Assembly (NCBI GenBank): GCA_964464405.1
Contig: CAYXFX010000002.1
Location: 44,027-108,026 of the forward strand
Direction: 5' to 3'
Length of the DNA stretch: 64,000 bases
From: an uncultured Candidatus Saccharibacteria bacterium
GTDB lineage: Bacteria > Patescibacteriota > Minisyncoccia > UBA11713 > 2-01-FULL-45-33
The translations under genes were made by a program, and so were the position numbers. The notes under the pieces are model-generated. The model searched no databases, had not been told where the DNA came from, and was given only the letters and a program-made list of their open reading frames with translations. Of this stretch, positions 1,146-22,160 are shown piece after piece. Numbering within the stretch: position 1 is the stretch's first letter; the number at the start of each line of letters is the position of its first letter.

Positions 1146-2165
1146 TTAAACTGCCGTAGAATGCTTGAAATACCACTCATACGTGCGGCGCAATCCTTCG
1201 TCTAAAGAAACTTCGGGTTTCCAGCCGGTGAGTGTTTGTAATTTAGAAACGTCCGCGAGGCGCCGTTTTACGCTACCAGGCGGAGAAGATTTGATGTCTA
1301 ACTCTTTTGGGCGCCAACCGGTAATTTTAAACATGCGCTCAGCTAAATCGAGCGCTGTGATTTCGTGAAAATCACCTATATGCACAGTTTCTATTGGCTG
1401 GTGGTCAGTTTTCGGAGTATCCATAAGTAAACGCATCGCGCGCACGGCATCATCTATATAACAATACGTGCGTGTTTCGTCCGCTCCGAAAATAGAAAAA
1501 GGATCGACGCTTCGTGCGATTCTTAAAGAAAATTCCGGTATTACGTGATCATATCCGGCGCGCGGACCGTAAAAGTTGTGCGGACGCACAATTATCCCAC
1601 GAAAATTATGGCTCTTCGCATAATGAATTAAAAACGGCTCTCCTATTAGTTTTGTGGCCGCATATGACCATCGCGGATTATACGGGTCGTCCACAACTAG
1701 CTGAACATTTTCGGGCGTTGGAATCGGCAGAGAGTTAAAAGCGTTAAGGGCGCCTGCGTATGCTTCATTTGATGATGTAAATAAAAATTTTCCGCCAGAG
1801 TTTTCTTTTTTAAACCATTCGAGCATATATATCAAAGAAAGCGTATTTATTCGCATAACTTCGTGCGGCATTTGATAAAAGTTTTTAGTGCCGTTAATTG
1901 CCGCGAGATGATAGACATGATGATACCCGTTTCCCAAATCGTTATACGAATTATGGTCAGTTAAATCCAAGTTAAGAAACCGAACGCGCGGATCGCAAAG
2001 CAGCGTTTTAAATTCGTCGTCCATTTTTCCACGCTGCAAATTATCTACCAATATAAGCAAAATATTTTCACCATAAGATGCAAGCAAATGCTGCGCTAAA
2101 TGGTAGCCGATAAACCCCGCTCCTCCTGTTATTAATATTTTTTTTATTTTTTCAGCCATATCCAC
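1146..2165 (-). CDS. NAD-dependent epimerase/dehydratase (extended SDR, NDP-sugar modifying)
   Basis: Has the N-terminal GGAGFIGYHL Rossmann motif and the YAATK catalytic Y-x3-K motif. Its 339 aa are typical of UDP/GDP-sugar 4-epimerases and 4,6-dehydratases. Confidence 0.85.
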   Translation of the reverse strand: MDMAEKIKKILITGGAGFIGYHLAQHLLASYGENILLILVDNLQRGKMDDEFKTLLCDPRVRFLNLDLTDHNSYNDLGNGYHHVYHLAAINGTKNFYQMPHEVMRINTLSLIYMLEWFKKENSGGKFLFTSSNEAYAGALNAFNSLPIPTPENVQLVVDDPYNPRWSYAATKLIGEPFLIHYAKSHNFRGIIVRPHNFYGPRAGYDHVIPEFSLRIARSVDPFSIFGADETRTYCYIDDAVRAMRLLMDTPKTDHQPIETVHIGDFHEITALDLAERMFKITGWRPKELDIKSSPPGSVKRRLADVSKLQTLTGWKPEVSLDEGLRRTYEWYFKHSTAV

Positions 2166-3742
2166 AAACTTTTTGGATCTTCTATTTCGTGTTTAATAAA
2201 TTTAAAACCGACGGCCTCCGCCATTTGTTTTGCTTCGCGGGGACTTAAAGAAACGCCGTATGCCCAATGCCACTTGTATGGGCCCATTCCCGTGCGAAGG
2301 TGAAGCTTTGCAATTCCTCCTGTATTTAACGTCCGGTAAAGTTCCTTAAAATAATTAGCAAGCGCTTTTTTTTGAGGCACATGCCGCAATGCTTGATATG
2401 AAAACGCCAAATCGAAGGAATTGCTTTTAAATGGAATGCTTTGTCCATCGGAAATTTGATAGTTAATGCGCTGGTCCGCAACTCTTTTTTTTGCGCTAGT
2501 CAGCATTGCGTCTGAAATATCAATTGCAGCAACACTTACAAAATGCTTCGGGAAAAATTCCGTCATTCTACCAAGACCGCATCCGATTTCAAGCGCAGAT
2601 GTTTTTGAATTTAGTATCTGGAATAATAATTTGTCTTCTTCTATATATTTTTTATAATCAGAAAGTCCGGTCTCCCGCAATTCAAATTCACTCACGTCTT
2701 TTCCTGACAAAGTTTTCGTATTTACATAATATCTCGCGTTCTTTTCTGCAAGTTTATTCCAAATATCACGCACATCGGATAAATCTCTGTCGGGAATCAC
2801 GCGCGTGAGCGCTTCTGATAAAAATCTAAATTTTTTCCTTGCCAGCTGCACCCCCCGTAAAGAATTAAGTTTATTCCACAAAAAAATACCGGTTCCTACG
2901 TCTCCCATAGCCTGCCGCTCATCGGCCCAAGAAGAAAACCATTCAGGAAGCTCGTTTTTTTTCTCAAATTCGCGATGCGCTAAATTACTTTTGTATGCCG
3001 CTTCCATAACCATGTTTCTTCCGCCGCTTCTGAAAGCGCGGGCAAATGCCCGCAGGTCTTTTGGTAAACAATGTCCCCCAAACGATTTTCCGTATCTTAA
3101 ATAACTTTTTTTCTCAAAAATAAAATCTATTACATCAGAGTCCTGAGTTAAATCTCCAAATTCATTAACAAATGCAACGCGCAGCGCATTCCAAATATTT
3201 GAAAGATATTTAATATAAGAAGCCTGTTCAGGCGTTCCTGTAAAAACTCTGTTTGACCTTATCCGCCATGAATCAAAGAATTCCGGTTCTTTTTGTAGCA
3301 TTGTTTTTGCGCCCAAAACAAAAAATTGCGGATTTAAGCACTCTTCCACCGCATGCTTTTCATGCAGAAACTCAGGCAAATAGAAATGAAAGTTAAGCTC
3401 TCGCAAACTTTGCGGTAAAACAGTCGAACGCAAAATAATTTTCCCCTTTGTTTCTTTTAACGAATCGAGTGCTTTTTTTATTAAACTTAAGTCCTGCGCG
3501 CCCTCTTCACTCACCTTATCCCCCACGCAAACGATATAAGAAGTGTCCACACTGTCCTTTTCTAAAGGGCTCGCAAGCGGCTGAATTTTTTTGTATAAGT
3601 CTTCGAATTCCACATAACGAAAAACTGGCGGCACCACGTCGTAATAATAAACTTCTTCGCCCATTTTTGTAAGCGCAATTGCGTTTGCCTGCCCCACCCA
3701 TCCGAACCCGACAACAACCATTCTTGGCTTTCCATTTTGCAT
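2144..3742 (-). CDS. Fusion protein: UDP-glucose/GDP-mannose-dehydrogenase-like N-terminal domain plus C-terminal class I SAM-dependent methyltransferase
   Basis: The N-terminus has VVVGFGWVGQ NAD-binding, PEFLHEKHAVEE (compare PEFLREG in UDPGDH) and GGHCLPKD (compare the catalytic GGSCFPKD). The C-terminus has EIGCGLGRM.. and ..FDLAFS.. methyltransferase motifs I and II. It is a single 532-aa ORF. Confidence 0.7.
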   Translation of the reverse strand: MQNGKPRMVVVGFGWVGQANAIALTKMGEEVYYYDVVPPVFRYVEFEDLYKKIQPLASPLEKDSVDTSYIVCVGDKVSEEGAQDLSLIKKALDSLKETKGKIILRSTVLPQSLRELNFHFYLPEFLHEKHAVEECLNPQFFVLGAKTMLQKEPEFFDSWRIRSNRVFTGTPEQASYIKYLSNIWNALRVAFVNEFGDLTQDSDVIDFIFEKKSYLRYGKSFGGHCLPKDLRAFARAFRSGGRNMVMEAAYKSNLAHREFEKKNELPEWFSSWADERQAMGDVGTGIFLWNKLNSLRGVQLARKKFRFLSEALTRVIPDRDLSDVRDIWNKLAEKNARYYVNTKTLSGKDVSEFELRETGLSDYKKYIEEDKLLFQILNSKTSALEIGCGLGRMTEFFPKHFVSVAAIDISDAMLTSAKKRVADQRINYQISDGQSIPFKSNSFDLAFSYQALRHVPQKKALANYFKELYRTLNTGGIAKLHLRTGMGPYKWHWAYGVSLSPREAKQMAEAVGFKFIKHEIEDPKSLWIWLKK

Positions 3743-3782: not shown

Positions 3783-5510
3783 TTAATACTTAATTTTATA
3801 TAAATAAAGGCTTTCCGATCTTAAAACTTCTTCGAGCCCAGTTATAAATTTTAAGTCCCATTCGGGATTTTTCTCTTTATCCCAAACGATATAATTAACT
3901 CCGTATTTTCTTAATATTTCAACGATATTGTTTTTATTTTTTGAAATATCCGAGTATTTCGCCTCCAGTTCCTTTTTTACTTCTAGCTCACTTTTCCCGG
4001 TTTTATGTGCATTAAATCCGGCAACGGTTCCCAAAAGCATATAGTAATAGTTGCGGTCCGTAAAATTCTTTTCTGCGGTCTTTACATTTGAATAATAATC
4101 AAAAAAGTTATTTCTGGCGTCTTTATTTAAATATGTATAAACGTAAAATACATCATAAATTTTTTCTTCCGGTGTATTTAAAGTTTGTGCGCCATCTGCC
4201 CAAAAAAGGTCATGCGGAGTATGCACAATAAACAGAAGCTGATCTAAATATTGGGACGCAAGTATTACGCCCGGCGTGCTGTCTTTATTTAAATAATCAA
4301 TTGCCGCACCATAGCGTTGCAGATATTTTTTTATTTCGAATGTTGCAAATGTTCCGCGGTATTGATGGATTCCCATGTATCCATAAATTAATAAAATAAT
4401 AGAACAAAACAATATATTTTTATATTTAAAACTTTTTAATAAATCAGCCGCAATTATTAATACAACAAAAATCGAAACGGGAATGACAAAATACCAAAAA
4501 TAATGCCATGGCTGTATTTCTCTGCCAGTGATAATATGCTGATTTAGGACAAACCAATTTCCTAAAAATAAGCTGAAAAGCAAAATAGAATTTTTTTGCA
4601 TGCGGTTTTTATAAAAATACGGAATTAGCAAAAAAACAGGAACCAAAGCGATTTTGCTGAAAACAAATGAGCCGCTCAGTGTCTCCCCGGAAAAAAACAA
4701 AAGCCGCCGTCCTAATTCGGAGTTAATCACAGAAAAAAGCTTAATTAACGGATACGCACCAACTGCTAATGCCGTAACTCCGACAAGCACTATTTTTTTA
4801 ATTTGCCCAAAATCGCGCAACACCGCGTTTAGCAGCAAAGAAACAAAAATGACCGCTCCAGCATAAGTCCATGCGTAAAAATAAACATAAAATAACGCGC
4901 CTAGCGTCGCTCCAGACAAATAAATATATTTTTTATTTGTTTCTTTTAAACACTTATTAAAAAAATATAAAAAGAGAAAAAGAAAAATCGCGCTAAAAAG
5001 CGGACGTATAGGACGAGCATAAACATTAAAATCCGTGCCGTATCCGCTAAAAAGTATCGGATATCTAACAATCAAATTATATCCTCCGATAATAAAAACC
5101 GGCGCAAGAACCGAAACAATTTTGTCAGCCGTTAATTCAAGGGCTAAAAAATAAATAATAACTGAAAGCAAAAATACGCCAATAAATCCCCATATATTAA
5201 AAACGGCTTCAACATTGACATCAGTGGCCCCAAACAATTTATATGGAAACATCAGCAACTGTTCCACGTAAATTTGTTGGACATTGGGCCCATCTTTTCC
5301 TTCTTTTAAAATAAAATTCCCGAGAGAATGTCCGTCTAAAATTTCTCTGCCGTGAGCAAGATACTGCCACTCATCCGATTCAAAATTTCCTGAATTAATT
5401 CCTCTATAATCGCCTCCGGCTAAAAATGGGAGTATTATATTCGGAAAAAACACCAAAAAAGCAATGGCAAGCGCATTTACCAACATAAACTTGTGTTCCT
5501 TAAATTTCAT
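3783..5510 (-). CDS. Large polytopic membrane protein, paralog A of three; candidate GT-C-like glycosyltransferase of unknown family
   Basis: About 12 predicted TM segments. It shares motifs with 5500..7224 and 12960..14783: G-D-Y-R/Q-G-I-N..D-E..Y..G...L-x-G-N-x-L-G-N, FYVY-x-YAWT, (H/Y)T-x-HDLFW, and a C-terminal NIVE-x-L-x-KY-x-V-x-YI-x-WD. The start is taken at the internal Met (MKFKEHKF...) by alignment with the paralogs; the ORF track extends to 5543. Confidence 0.75.
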   Translation of the reverse strand: MKFKEHKFMLVNALAIAFLVFFPNIILPFLAGGDYRGINSGNFESDEWQYLAHGREILDGHSLGNFILKEGKDGPNVQQIYVEQLLMFPYKLFGATDVNVEAVFNIWGFIGVFLLSVIIYFLALELTADKIVSVLAPVFIIGGYNLIVRYPILFSGYGTDFNVYARPIRPLFSAIFLFLFLYFFNKCLKETNKKYIYLSGATLGALFYVYFYAWTYAGAVIFVSLLLNAVLRDFGQIKKIVLVGVTALAVGAYPLIKLFSVINSELGRRLLFFSGETLSGSFVFSKIALVPVFLLIPYFYKNRMQKNSILLFSLFLGNWFVLNQHIITGREIQPWHYFWYFVIPVSIFVVLIIAADLLKSFKYKNILFCSIILLIYGYMGIHQYRGTFATFEIKKYLQRYGAAIDYLNKDSTPGVILASQYLDQLLFIVHTPHDLFWADGAQTLNTPEEKIYDVFYVYTYLNKDARNNFFDYYSNVKTAEKNFTDRNYYYMLLGTVAGFNAHKTGKSELEVKKELEAKYSDISKNKNNIVEILRKYGVNYIVWDKEKNPEWDLKFITGLEEVLRSESLYLYKIKY

Positions 5511-7224
5511 ACAGATGAATGTTATTCTCACTTTTAATTTCATGAAGTGTATTTATAAAAGACAAATCCCAGCTAGAATAAATATTTTCATCCCACAAAA
5601 TATACCGAACTTCATATTTTTTAAGCATTTCGACGATGTTTTTAGGACTCCGCGCCAGTTTGTTGTATTCCTCTGAAAAATCATTTAATAACTTTTCTCT
5701 TTTTTCTAAAAGTTCCGGATCTTTTCTTCCTAGTCTGCGATAATATTCATAGTGGTCAAATCCGGATAAATATCCTTCTATGCCTTCATAAACCGCGTGA
5801 GTCGGCGCATTATTAATAAAATCATTTCTTGTATTTTTATTTAAATATACATAAAGATACAAAGCGTCTTTAAAGCGCTGCATAGGATTGTAATTCATTG
5901 CGGCAAAATTGTGCCAAAAAAGATCATGCGGAGTATATATATTTACGAGCTGCGCATAAGGGTCGTCTCCCGCTAAAACAACTTCTGACTCTTTTTCTTT
6001 ATTTAAAATTTCCAGCACACTTTTATATTTTTGGTCGTAAAGTTTAGATTCGTAAGTTGTGCCAAAAGAACGGTATTGTCCTATGGCCGTATTTAGCAAC
6101 GCAAGCAAAATCAGTAAACCAAAACTTATTTTTCTTAAAAAATTATAATTTTCGGACAGCTTCCATAACATATAGAAGGTCGTAATAATAAAAAGCGGCA
6201 CAATAAAAAACCAGTAATAATGATTTTGTTGTAGCATTCGTCCCGTAATTATCTGCTGGTTTAAGGCGACAAATCCGGCAAGAGCCACAGAAAGCACAAA
6301 AGGGGCATTCGAATCCTCGCGGTCTTTGTAAATAAAAAAACAGAAAAGAACCAGTGAAAGCAACCCGAGATTATTCATTATAGGAGCGCTTCCCAGTGAC
6401 GACCATGAAAAATAATAAAATTGTTCACCTGCCGGCGAATTCAAAAAGTTAAAAATACGCAAAAGATACAAGCTTCCGATAAAAAATCCCAAAATATTTA
6501 TCCAGAAAACCCTTTTTGCGTTGCGGAAATCCTTCCAAAAAAGAAGGGCTAAAAATAAAATTCCGTTTAAAACTAAAGCAAAAGTCCAGGCATAAAAATA
6601 AACATAAAAAAGTAGCCCGTAAAGCGCGCCGGCAAAAAATATCGTTTTAATTTTTTCTGATTTAAGTGCCTTTACTAAAGCAAGCAAGTAAGAAAAAAAT
6701 GCAAGTGAGCCAATATAAGGATATAAAGATCTGCCGTACACATTAAAATCCTCGTAAAAAAAAGTTTTGTTGTATACTATTGAATAACCGCCGACAACAA
6801 AAAGTGCGGCGGATATTGCGAGAAATTTATTCGCGCTAATTTTCAAAGTTAAAAAATAAATTAGCAGAATTAAAAGAAATACTCCTATAAAATTATAAAT
6901 ATTATAAAGCGTTACAATATTTATTTGGTCCTTCAGTCCAAGAAAATATAAAGGTCCAACAAGCACATACTCGTTTATCGTAAAGTAATAGTCTTGTTTC
7001 GTACTTTTCCCTTCTTTTAATGCGGGGTTGCCCAAATAATTGCCGTGAAGCACATCGTTTCCGCGTGTTAAATAAAGATGTTCGTCTGTACCAAAATGAG
7101 CAATGTTTATTCCTTGGTACGAATCTCCAGCTTTAAAATAAAATGCAACTAGAGGAAATTCTATAAGCAGAGCCAAAATAAAGGACGAAATTAGTGCGGC
7201 TCGATGTTGTTTTAAAAATTCCAT
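5500..7224 (-). CDS. Large polytopic membrane protein, paralog B
   Basis: 574 aa with the same conserved motifs as paralogs A and C (AGDSYQGINIAHFGTDEHLYLTRGNDVLHGNYLGN; FYVYFYAWTF; YTPHDLFW; KNIVEMLKKYEVRYILWDE). Confidence 0.8.
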   Translation of the reverse strand: MEFLKQHRAALISSFILALLIEFPLVAFYFKAGDSYQGINIAHFGTDEHLYLTRGNDVLHGNYLGNPALKEGKSTKQDYYFTINEYVLVGPLYFLGLKDQINIVTLYNIYNFIGVFLLILLIYFLTLKISANKFLAISAALFVVGGYSIVYNKTFFYEDFNVYGRSLYPYIGSLAFFSYLLALVKALKSEKIKTIFFAGALYGLLFYVYFYAWTFALVLNGILFLALLFWKDFRNAKRVFWINILGFFIGSLYLLRIFNFLNSPAGEQFYYFSWSSLGSAPIMNNLGLLSLVLFCFFIYKDREDSNAPFVLSVALAGFVALNQQIITGRMLQQNHYYWFFIVPLFIITTFYMLWKLSENYNFLRKISFGLLILLALLNTAIGQYRSFGTTYESKLYDQKYKSVLEILNKEKESEVVLAGDDPYAQLVNIYTPHDLFWHNFAAMNYNPMQRFKDALYLYVYLNKNTRNDFINNAPTHAVYEGIEGYLSGFDHYEYYRRLGRKDPELLEKREKLLNDFSEEYNKLARSPKNIVEMLKKYEVRYILWDENIYSSWDLSFINTLHEIKSENNIHLYEI

Positions 7225-7898
7225 TGTTTTTCCGGTTTGATTATTAAAAAATGGAAAGTGTTAAAATAACACGGCCGCAAAATCAGGGAATAAAAAGGAT
7301 AAATTAAAAAAAATATTATTTTGAATCTTTTTTTTAATTTATCTTCACGAATATCATAAACTGCAAAACCTGTTTTGTTCAACATTTTTTTCGCTCTTTT
7401 ATAAGTAAAGTAATGCATGCTTACTAATTTCTGTCTTCCTCCGTAACCATCCGGTTTTTGCCGCCGAGCAAATTTCAAAACGGCTTCGGTCCATTCCCTT
7501 GGAATCCAGTTGATAAAATAGATATGATAATGATAGTCATAAACTCCGAAACGGTTGTGAAAGCTAATATAAGATTTGCCTCCCGGCTTTAAAACTCTGA
7601 AAATTTCTGCGCACATTTTTTTTGGGTCATCAACATGCTCCGTAACTTCCGAGGAATTTATAAAATCAAACATATTGCTTGAAAAAGGCAGCTCCTCCGC
7701 CTTGCCTGCAATAATATTTCCGCGCATACTTTCCGGTTTTACGTCAACGCCATAAGTTTTATAACCTAGACGTTCCATCTCTTCCAAAAATCTTCCGTCA
7801 CCCGCTCCTATATCTAAAACTAAACCGCCTTTTTTTAAAAACTGTGCGCAATATTCTGAATGCCTCATATAAATGTTTAGTAATATAGACCTCTCCAA
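7212..7898 (-). CDS. Class I SAM-dependent methyltransferase
   Basis: VLDIGAGDGRF (motif I), KTYGVDV, and FDFINSSEVTEHVDDP..VLKPGG (motifs II and III). Confidence 0.8.
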   Translation of the reverse strand: MERSILLNIYMRHSEYCAQFLKKGGLVLDIGAGDGRFLEEMERLGYKTYGVDVKPESMRGNIIAGKAEELPFSSNMFDFINSSEVTEHVDDPKKMCAEIFRVLKPGGKSYISFHNRFGVYDYHYHIYFINWIPREWTEAVLKFARRQKPDGYGGRQKLVSMHYFTYKRAKKMLNKTGFAVYDIREDKLKKRFKIIFFLIYPFYSLILRPCYFNTFHFLIIKPEKQWNF

Positions 7899-8617
7899 TG
7901 GTTAATTTTTATTTGTAATAACTCCTTCGCAGAACTTACTATGTCCGAAAGTACTCTCACTCGAGAATCATCATCATGCGCCCAGCTTACGGGCATCTGC
8001 CGAATTGGAATTTGTTTAAGACGTGCAATATATAAAAGCTCCGTATCAAAAGCCCATCTGTTAATCCGCGCCCTGGGAAATATTTTTACCGTTGCTTCTT
8101 TTGAAAAGCACTTAAATCCGCATGTAAAATCGGGGATCCCTGGAACAAAAAGGTTAGAGAGCTTGCTAAACCCTTGTCCTAAAAAAATTCTTAAAAAAGA
8201 TTCGCTTCTTTGTACTTTAGATCCACTAAGTCTCCGGCTTCCGATAATAATTTGGTCAGAAGGCTCCATAAGTAATTTTAATTGTTCAAATTCCGAAAGC
8301 GGAGTTGCTAAATCAATATCAAAAAAAATGACCCAGTCACTCGATGCGGCCAAAGCTCCCTGCCTTACAGCGTACCCCTTTCCGGTGTTTTTTTTGTATT
8401 CTACTATCTTAAACCCATACTTTGACTTGTAGTTTTCTAAAATCTTTTGCGTATCGTCACGAGATCCGTCATTTACAAAAATAATTTCCGTTCGCTCCGG
8501 AACTTTAGAAAAAAACTCGCAGATGCTGTCTATATTTTTCGGGATCCTTTTTTCTTCATTATAAACGGGAATTACAATAGAAAAAGAATGGGGCATTTTA
8601 AAAAAAATATTTCGCAA
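7877..8617 (-). CDS. Family 2 glycosyltransferase (polyprenyl-phosphate sugar synthase-like, DPM1/GtrB/ArnC type)
   Basis: FSIVIPVYNEE...EIIFVNDGSRDDT...DIDLATP. The likely true start is the internal Met (MPHSF..). Confidence 0.85.
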   Translation of the reverse strand: MRNIFFKMPHSFSIVIPVYNEEKRIPKNIDSICEFFSKVPERTEIIFVNDGSRDDTQKILENYKSKYGFKIVEYKKNTGKGYAVRQGALAASSDWVIFFDIDLATPLSEFEQLKLLMEPSDQIIIGSRRLSGSKVQRSESFLRIFLGQGFSKLSNLFVPGIPDFTCGFKCFSKEATVKIFPRARINRWAFDTELLYIARLKQIPIRQMPVSWAHDDDSRVRVLSDIVSSAKELLQIKINHWRGLYY

Positions 8618-9644
8618 ATTTTAATATTCCCTGTTTCCAAGGTACTCGGTGAGATACACCACTTATATCGCCGAACTTATTTTTATTTTCAAGATACCAT
8701 TCAAAATTTCTCACAAGCGCATCTTTATTTGAATATTTAGGGGTATACCCCAAAATACTCTCCGCTTTCTCTATAGAAACAAAGGAGTCTTTCCCGGCAG
8801 TTTCGTATACCCACTTGTAAAGCGGCGAAAGATGAAGTATTTCTAAAAATCGCAAAGTCCAAATCATAGGAGCTGCAGGCAACCCTATGATTTTTTTTCC
8901 GAAACCGGCATGATCCAAAACCGCTTGATAATCTTCGCGCATAGTTAAGAAGTTCCTTGCGCCAATATTAAAAGTATCGTTCACTTTTTCTTCTGGCAAT
9001 GTAAGCGTGAGCCAAATAGCTTCGCACAAATCTTCGACGTCCAGCAACTGATATTTATTTTTTCCGTTGCCTATCATAGGGAAACCACAACCTGTACTTG
9101 CCCAATCATAAAATAAAGCAAATACCCCCAAACGTTCTGGGCCTATAAAAGATTTTGGACGCAAAATAGGAACAATAGCTCCTTTTTTTCTTGCTTCTTT
9201 ACAAAGCTCTTCTGCCAAAATTTTTGCTTCGCCGTATGGTCCCACCCCTTGCAATTTATCGGTTTCATATATCGGGTGATGGTCGGGAATCCCATAAACA
9301 GCCGTGCTTGATATATGTACGATGCGCGGAATTTTATTTTTTATAACGGCGTCTAAAATATTTTTTGTGCCGTTAACTTCCGTTGAAAAAATATCTTCTT
9401 TGCTATAAAGTGGAAGCGCTGCTGCGGTATGCACTACCGCATAAACATTGTGAGTTGCTTCTTCGACATCTTTTACATTTCGTACATCTCCCGTAATGCA
9501 CTTAACTTGATTTTTTTCTAAGTAATCAAAAGGCGCGATATCCAAAGACACAACCTCGCATCCTTTTTTTAATAAAAAGCGCGCGAGGTTAATTCCTAAA
9601 AATCCAGCTCCACCGGTAATTAATATTTTTTTATCGCCATCCAT
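8598..9644 (-). CDS. NAD-dependent epimerase/dehydratase (SDR)
   Basis: KILITGGAGFLGINLARFL plus a YGEAK catalytic motif; 348 aa. Confidence 0.85.
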   Translation of the reverse strand: MDGDKKILITGGAGFLGINLARFLLKKGCEVVSLDIAPFDYLEKNQVKCITGDVRNVKDVEEATHNVYAVVHTAAALPLYSKEDIFSTEVNGTKNILDAVIKNKIPRIVHISSTAVYGIPDHHPIYETDKLQGVGPYGEAKILAEELCKEARKKGAIVPILRPKSFIGPERLGVFALFYDWASTGCGFPMIGNGKNKYQLLDVEDLCEAIWLTLTLPEEKVNDTFNIGARNFLTMREDYQAVLDHAGFGKKIIGLPAAPMIWTLRFLEILHLSPLYKWVYETAGKDSFVSIEKAESILGYTPKYSNKDALVRNFEWYLENKNKFGDISGVSHRVPWKQGILKFAKYFF

Positions 9645-10045
9645 AATTTATAAGCTATATTATCAATCAAATAAGTTATTTTTACAAACAAAGGTTCTCT
9701 TCCAGAGATTTTTCTTCGCACCATCATAAAATCAGAGCCTATATTTTTAGCAAACAGCCCGTCCGTCAAAAATTTATCTCCTATTACAATCGTATTTTTA
9801 CTTTTTATTTCTAAATTTCCCAAAGCCGATCTCCACGGTTTTCTTTTGTTGCTTCCTTTGTTACTTAATATGTGGACCTCATTATTCCTTTTTAATTCCT
9901 CTATCTTATGTAAAACTACTTTGCTTATGTCTTTGTCTCCATCCGGGCGCAGGGTGCCATCAACGTCTAAAATGATACACGCTCCAGAAATCGCGCCGAT
10001 TTCCTCAAAAAATTGCGGGTTTTCTCTTTTTTCACTACCCAGCAT
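9620..10045 (-). CDS. HAD-superfamily subfamily IIIA (YqeG-type) phosphatase
   Basis: ILDVDGTL motif I, ILSNKGS motif II, and KRKP...VIGDKFLTDG motifs III and IV; 141 aa. Confidence 0.65.
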   Translation of the reverse strand: MLGSEKRENPQFFEEIGAISGACIILDVDGTLRPDGDKDISKVVLHKIEELKRNNEVHILSNKGSNKRKPWRSALGNLEIKSKNTIVIGDKFLTDGLFAKNIGSDFMMVRRKISGREPLFVKITYLIDNIAYKLWMAIKKY

Positions 10046-10901
10046 AAAGTATAATTCCAGCAGAAACTATTAGCCAAATAAAAACAGTCACGAGCAGATG
10101 CTTATCAAAAAGCAAATCGTCAGTTGGACCGTCGTCTATTGTTTCTTTTACACTGATTAAAAATAAATATCTAAATAGTCCGTAAAGAACAATTGGAATA
10201 GTGACCATGAGAAGTTTGCTATGTTCTGAACTAAATGTATAAAACGCGTAAGTTATTATAGTTGAAGGAAGAACAATCATATTCATCTGGTCAAGCAACT
10301 GTGGGGAATATTGATTTAACCCAGTGCGAGTTAAGCTGTTTTGAGGATACGCAAGCTCGTTTTTCCTTTTAGAAATTCCCAAAAAAAGCGTGAGAAAAAA
10401 AGTAGACAAAATCAGCCATTGAGAAAAAGTGACTCCGATCGCAACCGCTCCAGCAATTACGCGTATTAAAAATCCAGCAGCAACAACAATTACATCGATA
10501 ATAACCACGCGCTTTAAATAAAAAGAATAAAGAATATTCAGTAATATATAATTTGCAATAAGCATTGCAAAATATGGATTAATAAAAAGTGAATTACCCA
10601 AAGAGAGTACGATTAGAAGCGCTGCGACAAGCCAAGCGGTATTTTGACTAAGTTTGCCAGAAGCGATCGGGCGGCTCCTTTTTTTAGGATGATTTCTATC
10701 CTGTTCAAAATCAAGCAAGTCATTAACTAAATAAACGGCGCTTGCAGCCAAACAAAAAAGAATGAAAGCAAAAACAACCGTCAAAAGTTTCGAAAAATCT
10801 GTAAATTCTTTTACAAAAATTATCGCAGCAAAAAGAAAAAGATTTTTAATCCATTGCTTGGGACGCATTGAGATAAACAAATTTTTTACGATTTCCTTCA
10901 T
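10035..10901 (-). CDS. UbiA-family prenyltransferase resembling decaprenyl-phosphate phosphoribosyltransferase (DPPR synthase)
   Basis: Multi-TM, 288 aa, with the motif LVNDLLDFEQDRNHPKKRSRPIASGKLS (N/DxxD...D plus the basic patch characteristic of 5-phosphoribosyl-1-pyrophosphate:polyprenyl-P transferases). Confidence 0.75.
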   Translation of the reverse strand: MKEIVKNLFISMRPKQWIKNLFLFAAIIFVKEFTDFSKLLTVVFAFILFCLAASAVYLVNDLLDFEQDRNHPKKRSRPIASGKLSQNTAWLVAALLIVLSLGNSLFINPYFAMLIANYILLNILYSFYLKRVVIIDVIVVAAGFLIRVIAGAVAIGVTFSQWLILSTFFLTLFLGISKRKNELAYPQNSLTRTGLNQYSPQLLDQMNMIVLPSTIITYAFYTFSSEHSKLLMVTIPIVLYGLFRYLFLISVKETIDDGPTDDLLFDKHLLVTVFIWLIVSAGIILYAG

Positions 10902-10962
10902 TGTCGCAATTTATCATAAAACAAAACCCAAAATTGCGCACTATTGACAGAGTAAAGGAAAA

Positions 10963-11697
10963 CTAGCTTAACCACTTCTCAAAATCGGAAAGAAATTGGT
11001 TTACGACTTCTTCGGTTTTAAAGTGATTTATCATATCGGGAAAATATTTTGGAGGGACTGTTACAATGTGCGCCCCTGCGAGCCTTGCATCCCGCACGTC
11101 AATCACTCCTCGCATGCTTCCTGCAATAATTTCTGCCGGAATCTTGTCTTGGTCAAAAATTCTGCGAGTCGCTTGTACAACTTTATAAGGGTTGAAGTCA
11201 TTTTTATCTAGCGCGCGTCTATTTTTTGCCTCGTCCCGTTCTTTGGACATTTTTTCATCTAGGCCCCCGTCCCGAATTCTTCCCCAAAAAAGACTGACAT
11301 ATTTTGCTCCGGCACGCGCCGCCATAACTGCTTGCGTAACATTCATGCAGGCCGTGCAATTTACAGAAATTCCTGCCTTGCTTAATTTTTTTATGGTTTC
11401 TAATTCATCCCATCCGACCTGAACTTTAATGCTCATCTGAGGATAGTTAAAATGGTTCATCATGTGGTGTGCTTGTTCAATTATCGTTTTTGGATCCCTC
11501 GAAAACACTTCAACACTAAGATGAATGCCGGGCTGATACTTATTTATAAGTTCTATAATTTTGCCGATATGCTTCGCAAGTGAAGATTTCGGCTCTTTTG
11601 CTAAAAGAGAAGGATTCGTTGTAATCCCGTGCGCAAAACCGCGCCTTAACGCTTCCTCAATGTCAACTAAGTTTGCCGTATCAATAAATATTTTCAT
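10963..11697 (-). CDS. Transaldolase / fructose-6-phosphate aldolase family (TalC/Fsa-like)
   Basis: MKIFIDTANLVDIEEA...GITTNPSLL, with a Schiff-base lysine region and TIM-barrel pattern; 244 aa. Confidence 0.8.
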   Translation of the reverse strand: MKIFIDTANLVDIEEALRRGFAHGITTNPSLLAKEPKSSLAKHIGKIIELINKYQPGIHLSVEVFSRDPKTIIEQAHHMMNHFNYPQMSIKVQVGWDELETIKKLSKAGISVNCTACMNVTQAVMAARAGAKYVSLFWGRIRDGGLDEKMSKERDEAKNRRALDKNDFNPYKVVQATRRIFDQDKIPAEIIAGSMRGVIDVRDARLAGAHIVTVPPKYFPDMINHFKTEEVVNQFLSDFEKWLS

Positions 11698-11733
11698 GCA
11701 ATTTTATATTATCAAATAAATTTTAAAAGACTA

Positions 11734-12300
11734 CTAAGAAGTTTGTATAATTTTTTTTATTAATTCTGTAGCTTCCGGCAAATCAGAAACATGGTAATCT
11801 GCTTCGACGCCCAAATTTTGTTCACCATTAATCAAAATTGTGCTGACTCCCGCAGACTTTCCTGCTTCAATGTCGCTTCCGCTATCGCCCACGATAAAAG
11901 AACCTTTAAGATCGATCCCCCATTTATTTGCCGCGGAAAGCAACATTCCTGGTTTAGGTTTTTTGCAATCGCATCCGTCATTTCTTCCGTGAATACAGAC
12001 ATAAACGTCGTCGAAAGGAAGTTTTCCAATATCTTTCATTATTAAATTGTGATCTTCTTGGGAAAGAAGTCCGTATGTCAGATCCGGCTGGTTAGTTACC
12101 AAAATTTTTAGAAATCCCAGACCGCCCAATTTGCTTAATTCGTCGTTCACACCAGATTTTATTCTAAATTCCTGATAGCTCCAGGGGGCCGTCCACCTTA
12201 CTTTCTTGCCAAGAACTTCGCAATTTTCTCCGCGATCAACAACTTCATTAATTACTCCATCTCTGTCCAAAAAAACCGCTCTTTTTTTTAAAGGTAACAT
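11734..12300 (-). CDS. gmhB: D-glycero-D-manno-heptose 1,7-bisphosphate phosphatase (HAD, GmhB)
   Basis: VFLDRDGVIN motif I, the zinc-binding C-x-H-x(6)-C-x-C motif (CIHGRNDGCDCKKPKPGM), and GDSGSD motif IV. Confidence 0.8.
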   Translation of the reverse strand: MLPLKKRAVFLDRDGVINEVVDRGENCEVLGKKVRWTAPWSYQEFRIKSGVNDELSKLGGLGFLKILVTNQPDLTYGLLSQEDHNLIMKDIGKLPFDDVYVCIHGRNDGCDCKKPKPGMLLSAANKWGIDLKGSFIVGDSGSDIEAGKSAGVSTILINGEQNLGVEADYHVSDLPEATELIKKIIQTS

Positions 12301-12305
12301 GTTAC

Positions 12306-12926
12306 TTAAATTATCTGCGGCGTCTTATGAATTCCCTCCCACTTGCCTTCGATCATTTTTAATTTGGGATGAAAAACCATACTATGCCACAAAACCGCCT
12401 GCCACGACTCCGCATGCGCCGTTACATTTTCGTGGTTTACTACAGGTACCAAAATGCAGGCATCCGCGACTCGCGCTGTGTGCCCGCCGTCTCTTGAAAC
12501 AATTCCTACCACCCTTGCTCCCATTTCCTTTGCGTGGTCTAGGGCATGCACAATATTTGTGCTCACTTTTTTTTCGGCATTTCCACCGCCTACTGAAAAA
12601 ACCATGACTACATCTTTTGGACCGATATTATTTCTTTCAAGCCATCTTACAAAAACAGAATCCCACCCGTCGTCATTCACACGAGCTGTTAATTCCGCGA
12701 CGTTATCTGTCGGCGTATAAGATTCTATATGCGCGATTTTTCTAAAATCGTTTACCGCATGAGAGGCGTTCGCAGCTGACCCCCCTACGCCAACTATAAA
12801 AAGTCTGCCTTTGTTATCTCTTGCGTTCCTTAGGATATCTACCGTCTTGTGAATCGCGCTTTTATCTACCTTTTTCGTAATTTCCGCGACTTCGTTTAAG
12901 TAGTTATCTATATAGTCGTTTTCCAT
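12306..12926 (-). CDS. gmhA: Sedoheptulose-7-phosphate isomerase (SIS domain, GmhA)
   Basis: RLFIVGVGGSAANASHAVNDF SIS motif; 206 aa; immediately adjacent to gmhB. Confidence 0.85.
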   Translation of the reverse strand: MENDYIDNYLNEVAEITKKVDKSAIHKTVDILRNARDNKGRLFIVGVGGSAANASHAVNDFRKIAHIESYTPTDNVAELTARVNDDGWDSVFVRWLERNNIGPKDVVMVFSVGGGNAEKKVSTNIVHALDHAKEMGARVVGIVSRDGGHTARVADACILVPVVNHENVTAHAESWQAVLWHSMVFHPKLKMIEGKWEGIHKTPQII

Positions 12927-12959
12927 GGTTTACTTTTATATAACAGAGCGCGCTTTCAT

Positions 12960-14783
12960 CTAGTTACTCTTTACTTTATATAGATATATGTTGCCTTCGC
13001 TAGTTAAAAGAGCCAGATTTCCCAAAATTGGGCTTAAATCCCATTCGGGACTTTTATTTTTATCCCAAACAATAAAATTTACTTCATTTCGTTTTAAAAT
13101 TTCAGCCATACCATTCGGATTTGCGGCTTTTTTATAATTATCGAACAGATAGTTTATCGTTTCCTCGCGGCTTTTTACAATCTTGGGGTCTTTTAATCTT
13201 ACACGTATATTATATTGATCGAAATCGACTCCGGATCTAAAGCCAGCAATATAACTATAAATCAAAGGATAATAGCTGTTTTCACCAGTAGTTCCGACAA
13301 GGCCGAACCCCTCATCAATTTTGCGCATTTGTTCCACAAAATTATTTCTTGAGTTTCTGTCCATGTAAGCATAAAAAAAGAGTGCATCTTCTAAACGCTT
13401 GTAAGGGGTATTAAATACAAATGCATTATTGCCCCAAAATAAATCGTGGCCAGTATAAACCGAAAAGAATCTCCCGTAATAATGTTCGGAGGTTAAAACT
13501 ACGCCGGGTTTTTTTTCTTTTTTTAAATAATCAATAATTGGACGGTAATTCTGTCCGTATTCCTTTATTTCCCATGTGGCCATCATTCCCTGATACTGCT
13601 GGCGCGTAGCGGCAATAAAAGCGGCAACAATAATTATTCCTAAAATCCATTTGCCATATTTTTGCAGTAAAGCAGAAACCTGTTTTTGATAATTTGCAAA
13701 TTTCCACAAAAGATACGATCCTACAACGATTGAAGTTGGAATAGTAAAGTACCAGTAGTAGTGCATAATCTGGGGTACTTTTCCGGTAAGCACTTGTTGG
13801 TTGAGGGTTAACCAGCTTGCTAAAACTATTGATAGAAAAACCGGCCCGTATTTATTCCTCTTATTTAAAAGCAAAAAAAGTATTGATAAAAAAAGGACAG
13901 CAAAAGAAATTTTACTAAATGGCGCCGGGTTTCTATTTAACGTGATTCCGTAATACAAAATCTGCCTGCCTACTTCCGTTTTAGAAAATGTAAGAGTTTT
14001 ATAAATTGTAAATGATCCTATCATGAGCCCCGCAAAAAAAACTATAAACATCTTTTTAAAAAGTTCGTACTGTCGTAAAATTAAATACAAAAGAACTAAA
14101 CTTCCCGTAAACGCCAAAGCGAAAGTCCACGCGTATGGATAAACATAAAAAAGAACACCGAATAATACGCTGGGCAATATCCAATATTTTAATTCCGTCC
14201 TGTCTAAGCTTCTAACTAGTGCGTTAATATATAAAAACAAAATAAGAAGGCCGTAAACAGGCATAATTGGCCTGCTAAAAATATTTAGGCCTGGAACTAC
14301 GGCCGTAACAGGCGCGTGCGAAAGTTTTACCAATGTATATCCGCCCACTGTAAATAGCGCAACGGATACGGAAAGTAATTTATTTTCCGAAAAAGAATAA
14401 ATTAAAAAATAAATGGATAAAACCAAAAGAAAAACGCCCAAAAAAGAATAAAAAGTGTAAATCGAAGTAATATTTTCTTTTGCAAATTCCACAAAACCCG
14501 AAAATTTAAACGGGGACAAAAGCACATACTCCAAATAAACCTGGTGGGGATCTGAAGACGAGTCTTTGCCGATTTTTAAAAAAATATTTCCCAAAGAATT
14601 GCCTTCCAAAATCTCTCTTCCTTTAACAATATAATAAGCATCGTCCACCCATTCGCCGATATTTACGCCTCTATAAACATTTCCCGCCAAAATAGGAAAA
14701 ATCAGTGCTGGAGAAATAACAACTAACGACATAAGTATCGCCGTAACAATTGCAAAGTTATGAATTTTTAGGAAACCAAACAA
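12960..14783 (-). CDS. Large polytopic membrane protein, paralog C
   Basis: 607 aa with the same motif set as paralogs A and B (AGNVYRGVNIGEWVDDAYYIVKGREILEGNSLGN; FYVYPYAWTF; YTGHDLFW; MAEILKRNEVNFIVWDK). Confidence 0.8.
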   Translation of the reverse strand: MFGFLKIHNFAIVTAILMSLVVISPALIFPILAGNVYRGVNIGEWVDDAYYIVKGREILEGNSLGNIFLKIGKDSSSDPHQVYLEYVLLSPFKFSGFVEFAKENITSIYTFYSFLGVFLLVLSIYFLIYSFSENKLLSVSVALFTVGGYTLVKLSHAPVTAVVPGLNIFSRPIMPVYGLLILFLYINALVRSLDRTELKYWILPSVLFGVLFYVYPYAWTFALAFTGSLVLLYLILRQYELFKKMFIVFFAGLMIGSFTIYKTLTFSKTEVGRQILYYGITLNRNPAPFSKISFAVLFLSILFLLLNKRNKYGPVFLSIVLASWLTLNQQVLTGKVPQIMHYYWYFTIPTSIVVGSYLLWKFANYQKQVSALLQKYGKWILGIIIVAAFIAATRQQYQGMMATWEIKEYGQNYRPIIDYLKKEKKPGVVLTSEHYYGRFFSVYTGHDLFWGNNAFVFNTPYKRLEDALFFYAYMDRNSRNNFVEQMRKIDEGFGLVGTTGENSYYPLIYSYIAGFRSGVDFDQYNIRVRLKDPKIVKSREETINYLFDNYKKAANPNGMAEILKRNEVNFIVWDKNKSPEWDLSPILGNLALLTSEGNIYLYKVKSN

Positions 14784-14787
14784 TTAA

Positions 14788-15774
14788 TTAAAAATCGAGT
14801 TTTTTAACACGCGCTCCCTGCTCATCAATCCAAAAATTAACCTCGCGAAGCATAAATGGCCGAAGTGTAGCTCTCACAGACTCTTTTATTTGTTCGGTGG
14901 GACAGTAAAATAAGAAATATCCTCCGCCTCCAGCACCGATAATTTTTCCTCCCAATGCTCCAGCTTTTTTTGCCGCATCATAAATATCGTCAAATCTCTT
15001 ATTGGACATCTGTTGAGACATCGCCTTTTTTATCTTCCAGTGATTATCCATCAAAGATCCGAAGCGATCTAGATCCTCTTTCAAAAATGAGTCATAAACC
15101 GCAAGCCCAATTTTTTTTGTTTCATGTTTTAACTCCAAAACTTTTTCTTTGTCCTGCGCCGCAAGAATTGGACTGCTTTCGCGGCTTACTCCAGTGTAAA
15201 AAAGGAGCGAGTTTTTTAGAAATTTATCCGTCGTTTCTTTTTTTATTTCGGGTTTTGTAATTTTCACTTTTCCATCCTGCGTAATATCAAACACAGCAAA
15301 CCCCCCGACGGCGCATGCGTACGGATCCTGCTTTCCATCGGGAAGTCCTAAATTTTGAGTAATCTCAAAAGATTTTTCCGCAGCTTCTATATTGCTCATT
15401 TCGTTTCCTTTGTACGCGGAAAGCCCCTTAAGAAGCGCCACTATGCAGGCGCCAGAAGATCCCAAACCGGTGCCAGCGGGAGTATCAGCTTTAAAGGAAA
15501 TCGCCACTCCTCTCTTAATTCCAGTCATTTTTAAAGATTCGCGCGCAAGTTCATGATGAATATCGTCAATCGAAGGGACTGCTTCAAAATTTTTATAATG
15601 CACATGTATCAAGTCGTCAGAACGCGTTTGTTTAATAAGCACATCCATATACATATTAATGGCCGCGCTAAAAATAAATCCTCCGTATTTTTGATAGTAC
15701 GAAGGCATATCAGTCGAGCCGCCTCCCAACGGAATCCTAAACGGCACCCGGCTTAAAATTAGTGATGAATTCAT
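14788..15774 (-). CDS. hddA: GHMP-family sugar kinase; D-glycero-α-D-manno-heptose-7-phosphate kinase (HddA-like)
   Basis: GHMP motif DTPAGTGLGSSGACIVAL; 328 aa; lies between gmhA and the other heptose-pathway genes. Confidence 0.75.
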   Translation of the reverse strand: MNSSLILSRVPFRIPLGGGSTDMPSYYQKYGGFIFSAAINMYMDVLIKQTRSDDLIHVHYKNFEAVPSIDDIHHELARESLKMTGIKRGVAISFKADTPAGTGLGSSGACIVALLKGLSAYKGNEMSNIEAAEKSFEITQNLGLPDGKQDPYACAVGGFAVFDITQDGKVKITKPEIKKETTDKFLKNSLLFYTGVSRESSPILAAQDKEKVLELKHETKKIGLAVYDSFLKEDLDRFGSLMDNHWKIKKAMSQQMSNKRFDDIYDAAKKAGALGGKIIGAGGGGYFLFYCPTEQIKESVRATLRPFMLREVNFWIDEQGARVKKLDF

Positions 15775-15828
15775 ATTTTATATAACTATTTATTTATAAT
15801 AAATGTTTTTTGGTCAAAAACGCAAATA

Positions 15829-15856
15829 TTGACAAAACTTGGGGTGGCGCTATATT
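15829..15856 (+). promoter_or_regulatory. Sigma70-like promoter for the plus-strand Nudix gene
   Basis: TTGACA (15829-15834), a 16-nt spacer, TATATT (15851-15856), then the RBS AAGGAG at 15876-15881 and ATG at 15888. Confidence 0.5.
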
Positions 15857-15887
15857 TATGCAAGAAAAATACTTAAAGGAGTACTAA

Positions 15888-16454
15888 ATGGGCATCGCAA
15901 CCGAGCGTGAAATTGTGGTTCGTGAAGTTTTGCACGAAGACAAGTGGGTTTATGCTAAACAAGTTGATGTAAACTTGAACAATGGGAAAGAAATAAAAAA
16001 CTTTCTCATGATTGAAACGAAATCCGGTGGTTTTATATCGGTATGCGCCAGAATGGAGGATGGAAAATTCCTTTTTGTTAGGCAATGCAAGCCGGCAGCC
16101 GGGCTCAGCATAGAATCTGTTGCTGGCGGAAAAAATCCTGAAGAAACATGGCCGGAAGCGGCACTGCGCGAGATGGTTGAAGAAAGCAAACATGAACCGG
16201 GAAAAATTGTAGAAATAGGCAACCATGATATTGGAATTTTTACGCAAACTGATCGTATTATCAATCCGGTACGTCTATTTCTCGCGTTCGACTGTAAAAT
16301 GAGTGAGGAAAAATTAAAAGGAGACGAAATACAGGGAATCGAACACCTTTTTTTAACTCCCGAAGAAACGCTGGAATGTATAGCAACCGGAGAAATCAGA
16401 GATCTTCCTACAGTTACCGGAATTTTTGCTCATCTTTATTACGAAAAAAAATAG
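15888..16454 (+). CDS. NUDIX hydrolase (candidate nucleotide-sugar pyrophosphatase)
   Basis: Nudix box GGKNPEETWPEAALREMVEESK (Gx5Ex7REUxEExG). It is the only plus-strand gene in the heptose cluster and has its own promoter and terminator. Confidence 0.8.
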   Translation: MGIATEREIVVREVLHEDKWVYAKQVDVNLNNGKEIKNFLMIETKSGGFISVCARMEDGKFLFVRQCKPAAGLSIESVAGGKNPEETWPEAALREMVEESKHEPGKIVEIGNHDIGIFTQTDRIINPVRLFLAFDCKMSEEKLKGDEIQGIEHLFLTPEETLECIATGEIRDLPTVTGIFAHLYYEKK

Positions 16455-16475
16455 CCGCGTTTTGCGGCTTTTTTG
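16455..16475. terminator. Bidirectional rho-independent terminator
   Basis: Hairpin GCCGC-GTTTT-GCGGC followed by TTTTTT on the plus strand and by a T-run on the minus strand, between convergent genes. Confidence 0.6.
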
Positions 16476-21548: not shown

Positions 21549-22160
21549 TTGAAATCGCTGATTATTTCCGCTTTGATGTTCGGCTTGTGGCCGCTTGTGA
21601 TGCAAAAAAGCGAGCTCCCGGACACAACCAAGGCCTTTCTTTTGACTTCTGTCACAATCGTTGTGGTTGGTTTTGCATTTTTCGCGTTTATGTCCACAAA
21701 TAGTTTCCAAACCGCTGGCCAAGGGATTATAATCGCAGTACTAATTGCTAGTGTTGGCGGCGCAATGAATGGTTTTGGCACATTAAAATTTTTAGATGCT
21801 ACAAGCGCAGTTGCAAAAATAGATTTGGCAAAAGCCATTCTTACGATGATTTTAATGCAAGTTACAGCAAACGAACTCGGGGGGGATACTTCTTTACGGA
21901 TCTCCCATAACTTTGAAAAAGGTTGCGGGATTTATTTCCGCAGTCATAACTTTTTGTTTACTTGTTTTATAAAAAAACCGTCCGCGATTAGATCGGGGCG
22001 GTATTTTTTATTTGTTAAAAACACAGCGCTCAAAAAACCCGCTGATTTGCCTCCAGTCTGTAAAAACCTTGTAAGCGCCAGAGCAGTACAAATTCCTTAT
22101 TACTGTTTCGTCATCATACACTGGAATTCCGATGACCATAGAACCAGCCGCAACCCCTGA
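21549..22160 (+). CDS. Hypothetical small membrane protein. Doubtful: the 3' half is probably not coding.
   Basis: The first ~115 aa are hydrophobic (3-4 TM). The last 153 nt overlap the convergent HAD gene and translate to low-plausibility sequence. Confidence 0.3.
   Translation: MKSLIISALMFGLWPLVMQKSELPDTTKAFLLTSVTIVVVGFAFFAFMSTNSFQTAGQGIIIAVLIASVGGAMNGFGTLKFLDATSAVAKIDLAKAILTMILMQVTANELGGDTSLRISHNFEKGCGIYFRSHNFLFTCFIKKPSAIRSGRYFLFVKNTALKKPADLPPVCKNLVSARAVQIPYYCFVIIHWNSDDHRTSRNP

Follow-up and report, generated by a model that had tools for sequence, protein, structure and literature searches.

What do three large, mutually similar membrane proteins of no recognised family do within the glycan island of an uncultured bacterium? 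The question is raised by a 64,000-nucleotide stretch of contig CAYXFX010000002.1 (assembly GCA_964464405.1, an uncultured Candidatus Saccharibacteria bacterium), hereafter the window, in which a preliminary description had singled out three open reading frames (ORFs)—here paralogues A, B and C—as polytopic proteins whose layout resembled that of GT-C glycosyltransferases. Sequence searches, structure prediction and comparison of gene neighbourhoods now suggest that A, B and C are likely to be class A GT-C glycosyltransferases of a hitherto unmodelled family, which would use lipid-linked donors and act outside the cell.

Three paralogous ORFs with a shared architecture

All three ORFs proved to be present, each on the minus strand (Table 1); strand was missing from the preliminary description. 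Their paralogy is evident from full-length identities of 34%, 35% and 35% (E = 2e-101, 8e-112 and 3e-115). Hydropathy and the secondary structure of an AlphaFold2 (AF2) model agree on the layout first proposed, namely one transmembrane (TM) helix and a loop of ~70 residues, followed by 10 TM helices and, at the C-terminus, a soluble domain of ~190–215 residues. By alignment and regular-expression search, A, B and C were all found to carry the loop-1 motif G(G/D/N)xY(R/Q)G(I/V)N...D(E/D)xxY...G..LGN, the motif FYVY(F/P)YAWT (residues 206–220) and the motif (Y/H)TxHDLFW (residues 430–450). A fourth motif that had been ascribed to all three, NIVExLxKYxVxYIxWD, occurs in A and B, with C bearing a partial version only (GMAEILKRNEVNFIVWD).

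A and B share 11 nt, the start of A lying within the end of B. Although the ORF of A can be extended to an ATG at 5543 (586 aa), we regard the ATG at 5510 (575 aa) as the better start because from there the protein lines up with B and C at their N-termini (M-x-F-(L)-K-x-H). A protein identical to C is annotated in a metagenome-assembled genome (MAG) of Candidatus Giovannonibacteria, where the NCBI model (P0001, HYS99_00315) has 590 aa and begins at M18, inside TM1. The TTG start at 14783, 4 nt past the stop of the upstream gene, restores 17 residues relative to this public annotation and is supported by the conservation of residues 1–17 across the paralogues.

A large family without a model

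That the proteins belong to no recognised family was borne out: A, B and C gave no Pfam or NCBIfam match at E ≤ 1, with one spurious exception on the NCBIfam side (B, E 0.18, with a score of 12 bits where the cut-off is 99). At this threshold Pfam returned neither PMT_2 (PF13231) nor PMT (PF02366), STT3 or the MIR domain, and DUF6044 (PF19510) was likewise not matched by any of the three. A search of B against phage genomes returned no match, and we found nothing relevant in the literature on GT-C enzymes in Patescibacteria, the candidate phyla radiation (CPR).

Relatives are nevertheless numerous. A word-indexed search yielded 47, all annotated as "hypothetical" and none containing a Pfam domain except for one GT2 fusion, whereas an exhaustive profile search of 1.84 billion cluster representatives returned 2,450 clusters at E ≤ 1e-3, 701 of them at E ≤ 1e-30. 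A second, distant subfamily (P0046-like) accounted for 179 matches and comprises Harrison-, Niyogi-, Taylor-, Portnoy- and Paceibacteria. Among GTDB species genomes we located 26 loci, all in patescibacterial lineages bar five third-party annotation (TPA) MAGs labelled 'uncultured Gammaproteobacteria'. Four loci from MAGs so labelled (L008, L011, L014 and L015) hold B-type members of 41–46% identity together with modules of GT2 and methyltransferase genes, or of a UGDH/methyltransferase fusion and a short-chain dehydrogenase/reductase (SDR). We doubt the gammaproteobacterial label because this gene content matches that of CPR loci; it is probably wrong.

Across the sampled patescibacterial loci, B represents the most widely conserved type: B-type relatives (~35–49% identity) occur in 19 of the 30 related loci that were fetched, spanning Giovannoni-, Magasanik-, Kaiser-, Sacchari- and Peregrinibacteria, and A-type relatives (39–40% identity) were found in L004/L006 and L013. 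Copy number ranges from one to three per genome, and many genomes have a single copy. The exact triple arrangement, checked for conservation, is not kept in related genomes, which carry one to three copies in varied combinations. We are confident that a large unannotated family exists and that nearly all of its named members are Patescibacteria.

The predicted structure is that of a GT-C enzyme

An AF2 model of C, built from a 45-sequence alignment, reached a predicted local distance difference test score (pLDDT) of 92.1 and a predicted TM-score (pTM) of 0.92. When this model was compared with the PDB using Foldseek, the top 26 matches were all GT-C enzymes, 23 of them at E ≤ 1e-3 and the best with TM-scores of ~0.5, in line with the likeness initially drawn from layout. 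A transporter fold was rejected, the major facilitator superfamily (MFS) and other transporters appearing only at E > 0.2 and with TM-scores of ~0.1. The polytopic N-terminal module of C matches the fold of solved GT-C enzymes, and its C-terminal domain is of the alpha/beta, STT3/AglB/AftA type, a fold that also occurs in the non-oligosaccharyltransferase enzymes AftA, AftD and DPY19. On the strength of the model we are confident in a predicted GT-C (class A) fold for A, B and C, and we conclude from the Foldseek matches that the modelled architecture is that of the STT3/AftA/DPY19 group of class A enzymes.

The model is consistent with 11 TM helices, an N-terminus in the cytoplasm and a C-terminal domain outside. 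When the sequence of C is read against the model helices, the short loops after TM4, TM6 and TM8 contain two or three Lys/Arg each, as expected on the cytoplasmic side on which they were placed. The first outer loop (residues 37–104 of C) would form helices at 48–59, 84–94 and 98–103.

Conserved residues gather on the predicted outer face

Conservation was assessed across 102 diverse members with a median identity of 22% to C, whose numbering is used throughout. Loop 1 had been described as acidic, and the alignment indeed revealed acidic residues there that are widely kept, none of them being fully invariant (E/D48 in 91/102, E/D57 in 90/102, D/E60 in 85/102 and E/D85 in 90/102). The same loop retains K73 in 91 of the 102 sequences, along with Y37, G39, Y51 and G61. 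Further conserved positions are R171 (101/102) and P175 between TM3 and TM4, Y215 and W219 in the outer TM5/TM6 turn, and Q411 and T444 in the outer domain. Two features mark the outer start of TM10 and the loop leading into it: the stretch N328-Q-Q-x-x-T-G334, conserved at 88–96%, and H341, present in all 102 members. No highly conserved position lies in the cytoplasmic loops of these sequences. Such a pattern would be expected of a GT-C active site and, by analogy, E/D48 may serve as the base and R171 and H341 as phosphate ligands.

Fusions and gene neighbourhoods point to lipid-linked donors

The preliminary description had further proposed that the proteins depend on lipid-linked sugars, and this gained support from domain fusions and from conserved gene neighbourhoods. 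N-terminal additions were seen in each of the seven long proteins within the top 150 representatives, and in P0044 too: a GT2 domain in six members (P0049, P0061, P0064, P0133, P0158 and P0044), a class I methyltransferase in P0083 and GtrA in P0148. GtrA is a small membrane protein of polyprenyl-phosphate-sugar systems. Fusion of cytoplasmic domains (GT2, methyltransferase) to the N-terminus also agrees with the N-in orientation of the model.

Similar partners recur as separate genes. A GT2 gene lies within 10 kb of a member in ~19 of the 26 loci, and in the window, as in L013, L014, L016, L022, L027 and L034, a methyltransferase gene sits immediately upstream of a member; in L003 it adjoins a distant member. 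Because the order in L034 belongs to the distant subfamily, the pattern exists in both subfamilies. The fuller order GT2–methyltransferase–member is shared by the window, L014 and L016, and in L035 GtrA, GT2 and methyltransferase genes precede a member that has FdtA directly next to it. GtrA also occurs in L001/L002, and another Giovannonibacteria genome has the series GT2–member–member–GT2–AsnB–UbiA–HAD–SDR–GtrA–methyltransferase (HAD, haloacid dehalogenase-type phosphatase).

Other neighbours recur in subsets of loci. Members in the window have a UbiA–HAD–SDR cassette nearby, as do members in further loci of Giovannonibacteria and Kaiserbacteria, but most of the remaining loci lack it. Orthologues of the window SDR, 69–75% identical, follow UbiA in L001, L012, L018, L020 and L027; the HAD gene comes directly after UbiA in the window, L001, L012, L018 and L027, L020 having UbiA and SDR only. 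The order member–UGDH/methyltransferase–SDR is common to the window, L008, L009, L012 and L013, and heptose genes adjoin members in L013, L016, L017 and L022. The order nucleotidyltransferase–GT2–GFO/DAO beside members was seen in L003 and L013. Within the window (18047–20047, minus strand), the last of these is a 666-aa fusion of a GFO/IDH/MocA oxidoreductase with a DAO-type FAD oxidoreductase; in Magasanikbacteria (L003), GFO and DAO are separate adjacent genes in the same gene order.

The gene cluster around A, B and C

Both pathways that had been noted near the paralogues were recovered in the window, the GDP-heptose pathway as GmhA-, GmhB-, HddA- and HddC-like genes with a transaldolase, and the lipid-pentose pathway as a UbiA-type phosphoribosyltransferase, a HAD phosphatase and an SDR (Table 1).

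Table 1 Features of the window around paralogues A, B and C.
Feature	Position	Strand	Remarks
SDR, dehydratase/decarboxylase-like	1146–2165	−	
Nucleoside diphosphate (NDP)-sugar dehydrogenase–methyltransferase fusion	2144–3742	−	
Paralogue A, predicted GT-C-fold membrane protein	3783–5510	−	575 aa; ORF, identity to B and C, motifs
Paralogue B, predicted GT-C-fold membrane protein	5500–7224	−	574 aa; ORF, identity to A and C
Class I S-adenosylmethionine (SAM) methyltransferase	7212–7898	−	228 aa; Pfam Methyltransf_11/23; overlaps start of B by 13 nt
GT2, polyprenyl-phosphate-sugar synthase type (DPM1/GtrB/ArnC-like)	7877–8617	−	246 aa; PF00535
SDR	8598–9644	−	348 aa; Pfam Epimerase, HpnA-like; TGxxGxxG and YxxxK
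Small HAD-IIIA phosphatase	9620–10045	−	141 aa; Pfam and NCBIfam HAD; DVDGT (DxDxT) motif
UbiA-family polyprenyl-phosphate 5-phosphoribosyltransferase	10035–10901	−	288 aa; NCBIfam
Transaldolase/FSA	10963–11697	−	heptose precursor gene
GmhB-like phosphatase	11734–12300	−	heptose precursor gene
GmhA-like SIS isomerase	12306–12926	−	heptose precursor gene
Paralogue C, predicted GT-C-fold membrane protein among heptose genes	12960–14783	−	607 aa, TTG start; protein modelled
GHMP kinase, HddA-like (D-glycero-D-manno-heptose 7-phosphate kinase)	14788–15774	−	NF049969, 145 bits, below cut-off
Terminator-like bidirectional hairpin	16453–16469	.	between convergent NUDIX (+) and AAA_33 (−) genes
Second polyprenyl-phosphate-sugar-synthase-like GT2	20044–20772	−	best match ArnC, below cut-off
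Sugar-1-phosphate nucleotidyltransferase	20782–21447	−	

Seven consecutive genes (UbiA, HAD, SDR, GT2, methyltransferase, B and A) have ends that overlap by 11–25 nt. Along the minus strand from 15774 to 1146 there is no intergenic terminator-like site, the only convincing terminator being the hairpin at 16453–16469, and the divergent intergenic region at 15775–15887 contains a sigma-70-like promoter match (11/12) for the NUDIX gene. The HddA-like kinase, C, GmhA, GmhB, the transaldolase and the following genes on to the SDR at 1146 probably form one transcription unit, of which the hairpin would mark the upstream boundary and the kinase would be the first gene.

Assignments within this unit differ in firmness. 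The UbiA protein exceeds the cut-offs of two NCBIfam models—NF008977, 'decaprenyl-phosphate phosphoribosyltransferase' (256 bits; cut-off 234), and NF008978 (226.3 bits; cut-off 207)—and shares 31–39% identity with annotated decaprenylphosphoryl-5-phosphoribose (DPPR) synthases on plasmids. The GT2 upstream of the methyltransferase matches the NCBIfam models for PpgS, AglJ, Dol-P-hexose transferase and PgfS over nearly the full length, each time scoring below the cut-off, and probably makes a lipid-linked hexose or heptose donor. For the three genes between UbiA and C, the best NCBIfam matches are heptose enzymes, with the equivalog heptose models staying below their curated cut-offs; only generic HAD domain models passed for the GmhB-like protein. 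The dehydrogenase–methyltransferase fusion is unusual in combining the N-terminal and central domains of the dehydrogenase, without its C-terminal domain, with a SAM methyltransferase.

Beyond the unit, the island holds further candidates. Weak PMT_2 matches mark three more potential GT-C genes (23678–25111, 25982–27613 and 29660–31270), each beside a GT2 gene (25041–25817, 28922–29617 and 31270–32070, respectively); counted with A, B and C, they would bring the island to at least six GT-C-type transferases. Between one of these PMT_2-like genes and its GT2 gene, a 440-aa ORF without a Pfam match (27603–28925, minus strand) may encode a further membrane protein of the island that fits no known class. 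On the plus strand, the first ~115 residues of the ORF at 21549–22160 include several hydrophobic segments with a weak LrgB-like match only, and the remainder, which overlaps a HAD gene (22008–22709), looks non-coding; this may represent a small flippase-like protein whose end was set wrongly. Downstream of a GT4/GT2 block and beside SecD, a protein with lamin-tail (LTD) and PKD domains (40871–42415, minus strand) is a possible surface-protein substrate for glycosylation.

Comparison with known systems

The closest parallel comes from work on pentofuranose transfer (Kelly et al. 2024, PNAS, PMC11127046), where experiments established that a UbiA-type polyprenyl-phosphate phosphoribosyltransferase (PPPRS) and a HAD phosphatase make undecaprenyl phosphate (UndP)-ribofuranose, which an optional SDR epimerase converts to xylofuranose. 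Export of the donor by a flippase was proposed there from bioinformatics, and a GT-C enzyme, the GT136 founder ORF12 of Citrobacter youngae, with ArnT given as its nearest sequence relative, adds the pentofuranose to the O antigen in the periplasm. Following these precedents (PMC11127046), the HAD protein of the window is a candidate 5'-phosphoribosyl phosphatase, and the SDR, after ORF13, a candidate epimerase acting on polyprenyl-phosphate-ribofuranose.

The resemblance extends to the transferase. Like ORF12, members of the present family are predicted to cross the membrane 11 times, with a small helical domain in the periplasm following TM1 and a further outer domain at the C-terminus; in both cases the gene is linked to a UbiA-type PPPRS and a HAD phosphatase, with an SDR epimerase in some instances, and acidic and Tyr residues lie just past TM1 (D31, E34 and Y35 in ORF12; D47, E48 and Y51 here). 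They differ in that the C-terminal domain of ORF12 is a beta-rich carbohydrate-binding module, whereas ours is alpha/beta and STT3/AglB-like, and in that the family described here, which we set beside ORF12 by published description only, lacks a PMT_2/ArnT signal. The flippases may differ as well, the candidates being a MATE protein in C. youngae and GtrA in relatives of the present family.

Other GT-C systems are more distant. AftA (GT85) and the mycobacterial arabinofuranosyltransferases share ~10% identity with our proteins, which matched no Pfam model, any AftA model in the library included; moreover, the window has no DprE1/DprE2 pair and no galactan context, and the host phylum is another. 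With the GT39 protein mannosyltransferases Pmt1, Pmt2 and Pmt4, only the transmembrane core aligns (~332–343 residues), and the PMT, PMT_2 and MIR-domain signals are missing here. The Gtr and ArnC/ArnT systems share the overall logic of a cytoplasmic GT2 that loads polyprenyl phosphate, a small flippase and a polytopic transferase outside; as in Gtr systems, GT2 and GtrA are fused or adjacent to members, and in the window the GT2 lies two genes upstream of B. They are set apart by the sequence family of the transferase, by the recurrent extra methyltransferase and by the absence of any recognisable GtrA from the window.

Pentofuranose cassettes were also seen next to other proteins. A sequence from human faeces labelled 'Bacteriophage sp.' (L031; MT837543.1, 898–5419) has the order UbiA–HAD–SMR/EamA–SDR–DUF6044; its SDR and that of the window cassette are 28% identical (E 3e-41), and its DUF6044 protein scores 347 bits on the PF19510 model. 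This arrangement suggests DUF6044 to be the transferase partner, presumably GT-C, of a pentofuranose three-component system. A Lactococcus plasmid (L033) carries the order hypothetical (533 aa)–PPPRS–HAD–GtrA. In hhalign comparisons, our family profile showed no similarity to the Lactococcus plasmid protein or to the DUF6044 protein of L031, nor to a 650-aa Burkholderia multivorans ORF (L032), which was picked by size from high-GC unannotated DNA and may not be a gene. It thus emerges from L031, L033 and the window that the donor cassette adjoins different large membrane proteins without detectable mutual sequence similarity, those of L031 and L033 being presumed GT-C enzymes.

A proposed mechanism and its alternatives

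We draw the following mechanism by analogy with solved GT-C enzymes, inferring topology, residue roles, catalysis, donors and acceptor. In the cytoplasm, the UbiA-type phosphoribosyltransferase, the HAD phosphatase and the SDR would synthesise a polyprenyl-phosphate-pentofuranose, and DPM1/GtrB/ArnC-like GT2 enzymes would make polyprenyl-phosphate-hexose or -heptose, possibly O-methylated by the co-conserved methyltransferase. The lipid-linked sugar would then be flipped across the membrane, and the GT-C protein would move it to an extracytoplasmic acceptor, with E/D48 acting as the base and R171 and H341 holding the phosphate. Fusions and gene context make polyprenyl-monophosphate monosaccharides well-supported candidate donors. 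On this proposal, the known three-component logic operates with an added methyltransferase partner, in a new sequence family of a well-known superfamily.

Gene positions offer hints as to which donor goes with which paralogue. B is tied to the GT2–methyltransferase pair and C sits among the heptose genes. By sequence, translation of B and A is coupled to that of the pentofuranose cassette. Downstream of A comes the UGDH/methyltransferase–SDR pair, and A lies near a DegT aminotransferase, an arrangement that recalls the Arn pathway.

Several points weigh against assigning A, B and C to lipid-linked-sugar-dependent GT-C transferases. Searches of Pfam, NCBIfam and PDB sequences, as well as hhalign comparisons, detected no sequence relationship to any characterised GT-C family; the family profile matched nothing among the PDB sequences, and hhalign gave it a probability below 1% against the PMT_2-like proteins of the window itself. 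The window contains no recognisable GtrA, SMR or MATE flippase, GtrA having been sought by tblastn as well. The case is built wholly from sequence, predicted structure and gene context, and residue roles were read from position in sequence and secondary structure. With at least three or four candidate donor pathways at hand (pentofuranose, heptose, the UGDH/SDR/aminotransferase branch and the GT2 products), pairing each paralogue with a donor is guesswork.

A bolder version of the proposal holds that the family is the principal outer-face glycosylation machinery of Patescibacteria, that a dedicated methyltransferase, either fused or adjacent, obligatorily methylates the lipid-linked sugar before transfer, a step without earlier description, and that A, B and C between them add a methylated sugar, a pentofuranose and a heptose from lipid-monophosphate donors. 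Lipid-linked heptose would be a donor type of which we know no description. The predicted STT3-like C-terminal domain would also allow surface proteins, for instance pili or S-layer proteins, as acceptors, in which case the family would comprise protein glycosyltransferases of a new kind that use monosaccharide donors. We consider this version rather unlikely.

Alternatively, the proteins might be processive polymerases of the Emb/Aft kind, building a homopolymer such as a pentofuranan or heptan on the outer face of the membrane, much as those enzymes build arabinan, with paralogues that initiate, elongate and branch. Nothing in the data separates processive from single-addition activity. Given that the cassette has no DprE1-type FAD oxidase beside it and that so many genomes make do with a single copy, we hold this to be improbable.

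A related scheme would have them act like the oligosaccharyltransferases (OSTs) STT3, AglB and PglB (GT66), moving a preassembled glycan en bloc from polyprenyl diphosphate to proteins such as S-layer proteins or pilins. OSTs have 13 TM helices. The likeness to GT66 lies in the alpha/beta core fold of the C-terminal domain, but that fold is shared by AftA, AftD and DPY19, none of which is an OST. The present proteins have 11 TM helices and no Pfam STT3 match, and regular-expression searches of A, B and C found none of the WWDYG, DxD and TIxE/SVSE motifs, for which reason we downgraded this scheme. Moreover, the fusions and neighbours—DPM1/GtrB-like GT2, GtrA and the phosphoribosyltransferase—are hallmarks of monophosphate-linked single-sugar donors, so that gene context, too, argues for monosaccharide-monophosphate donors and leaves an OST-like role with little probability.

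That A, B and C are instead GT-C-fold non-transferases, be it scaffold or substrate-binding subunits like PIGU/GAB1 or transporters of lipid-linked sugars, is very improbable indeed: the conserved residues (acidic, Arg, His and NQQ) map to the side of the membrane that bears GT-C active sites, the outer face, and the best structural matches are active transferases with no transporter among the significant ones.

Implications

Under the preferred reading of A, B and C as extracytoplasmic GT-C glycosyltransferases fed by lipid-linked monosaccharides, the three-component logic described for pentofuranose (PMC11127046) would reach a further phylum and a GT-C family not seen in it before, and a new Pfam/CAZy family would be justified.

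Patescibacteria account for a large part of the diversity of bacteria, grow attached to host cells and have hardly any cultured representatives, and to our knowledge their surface chemistry is essentially unknown. With our analysis, ~2,450 clusters annotated as "hypothetical proteins" become an enzyme family that can be tested, equipped with a structural model of high confidence, with candidates for the catalytic residues and the donors, and with a GT2–methyltransferase–GT-C module that recurs. While unsurprising in kind, the finding offers a concrete entry point to CPR surface glycobiology.

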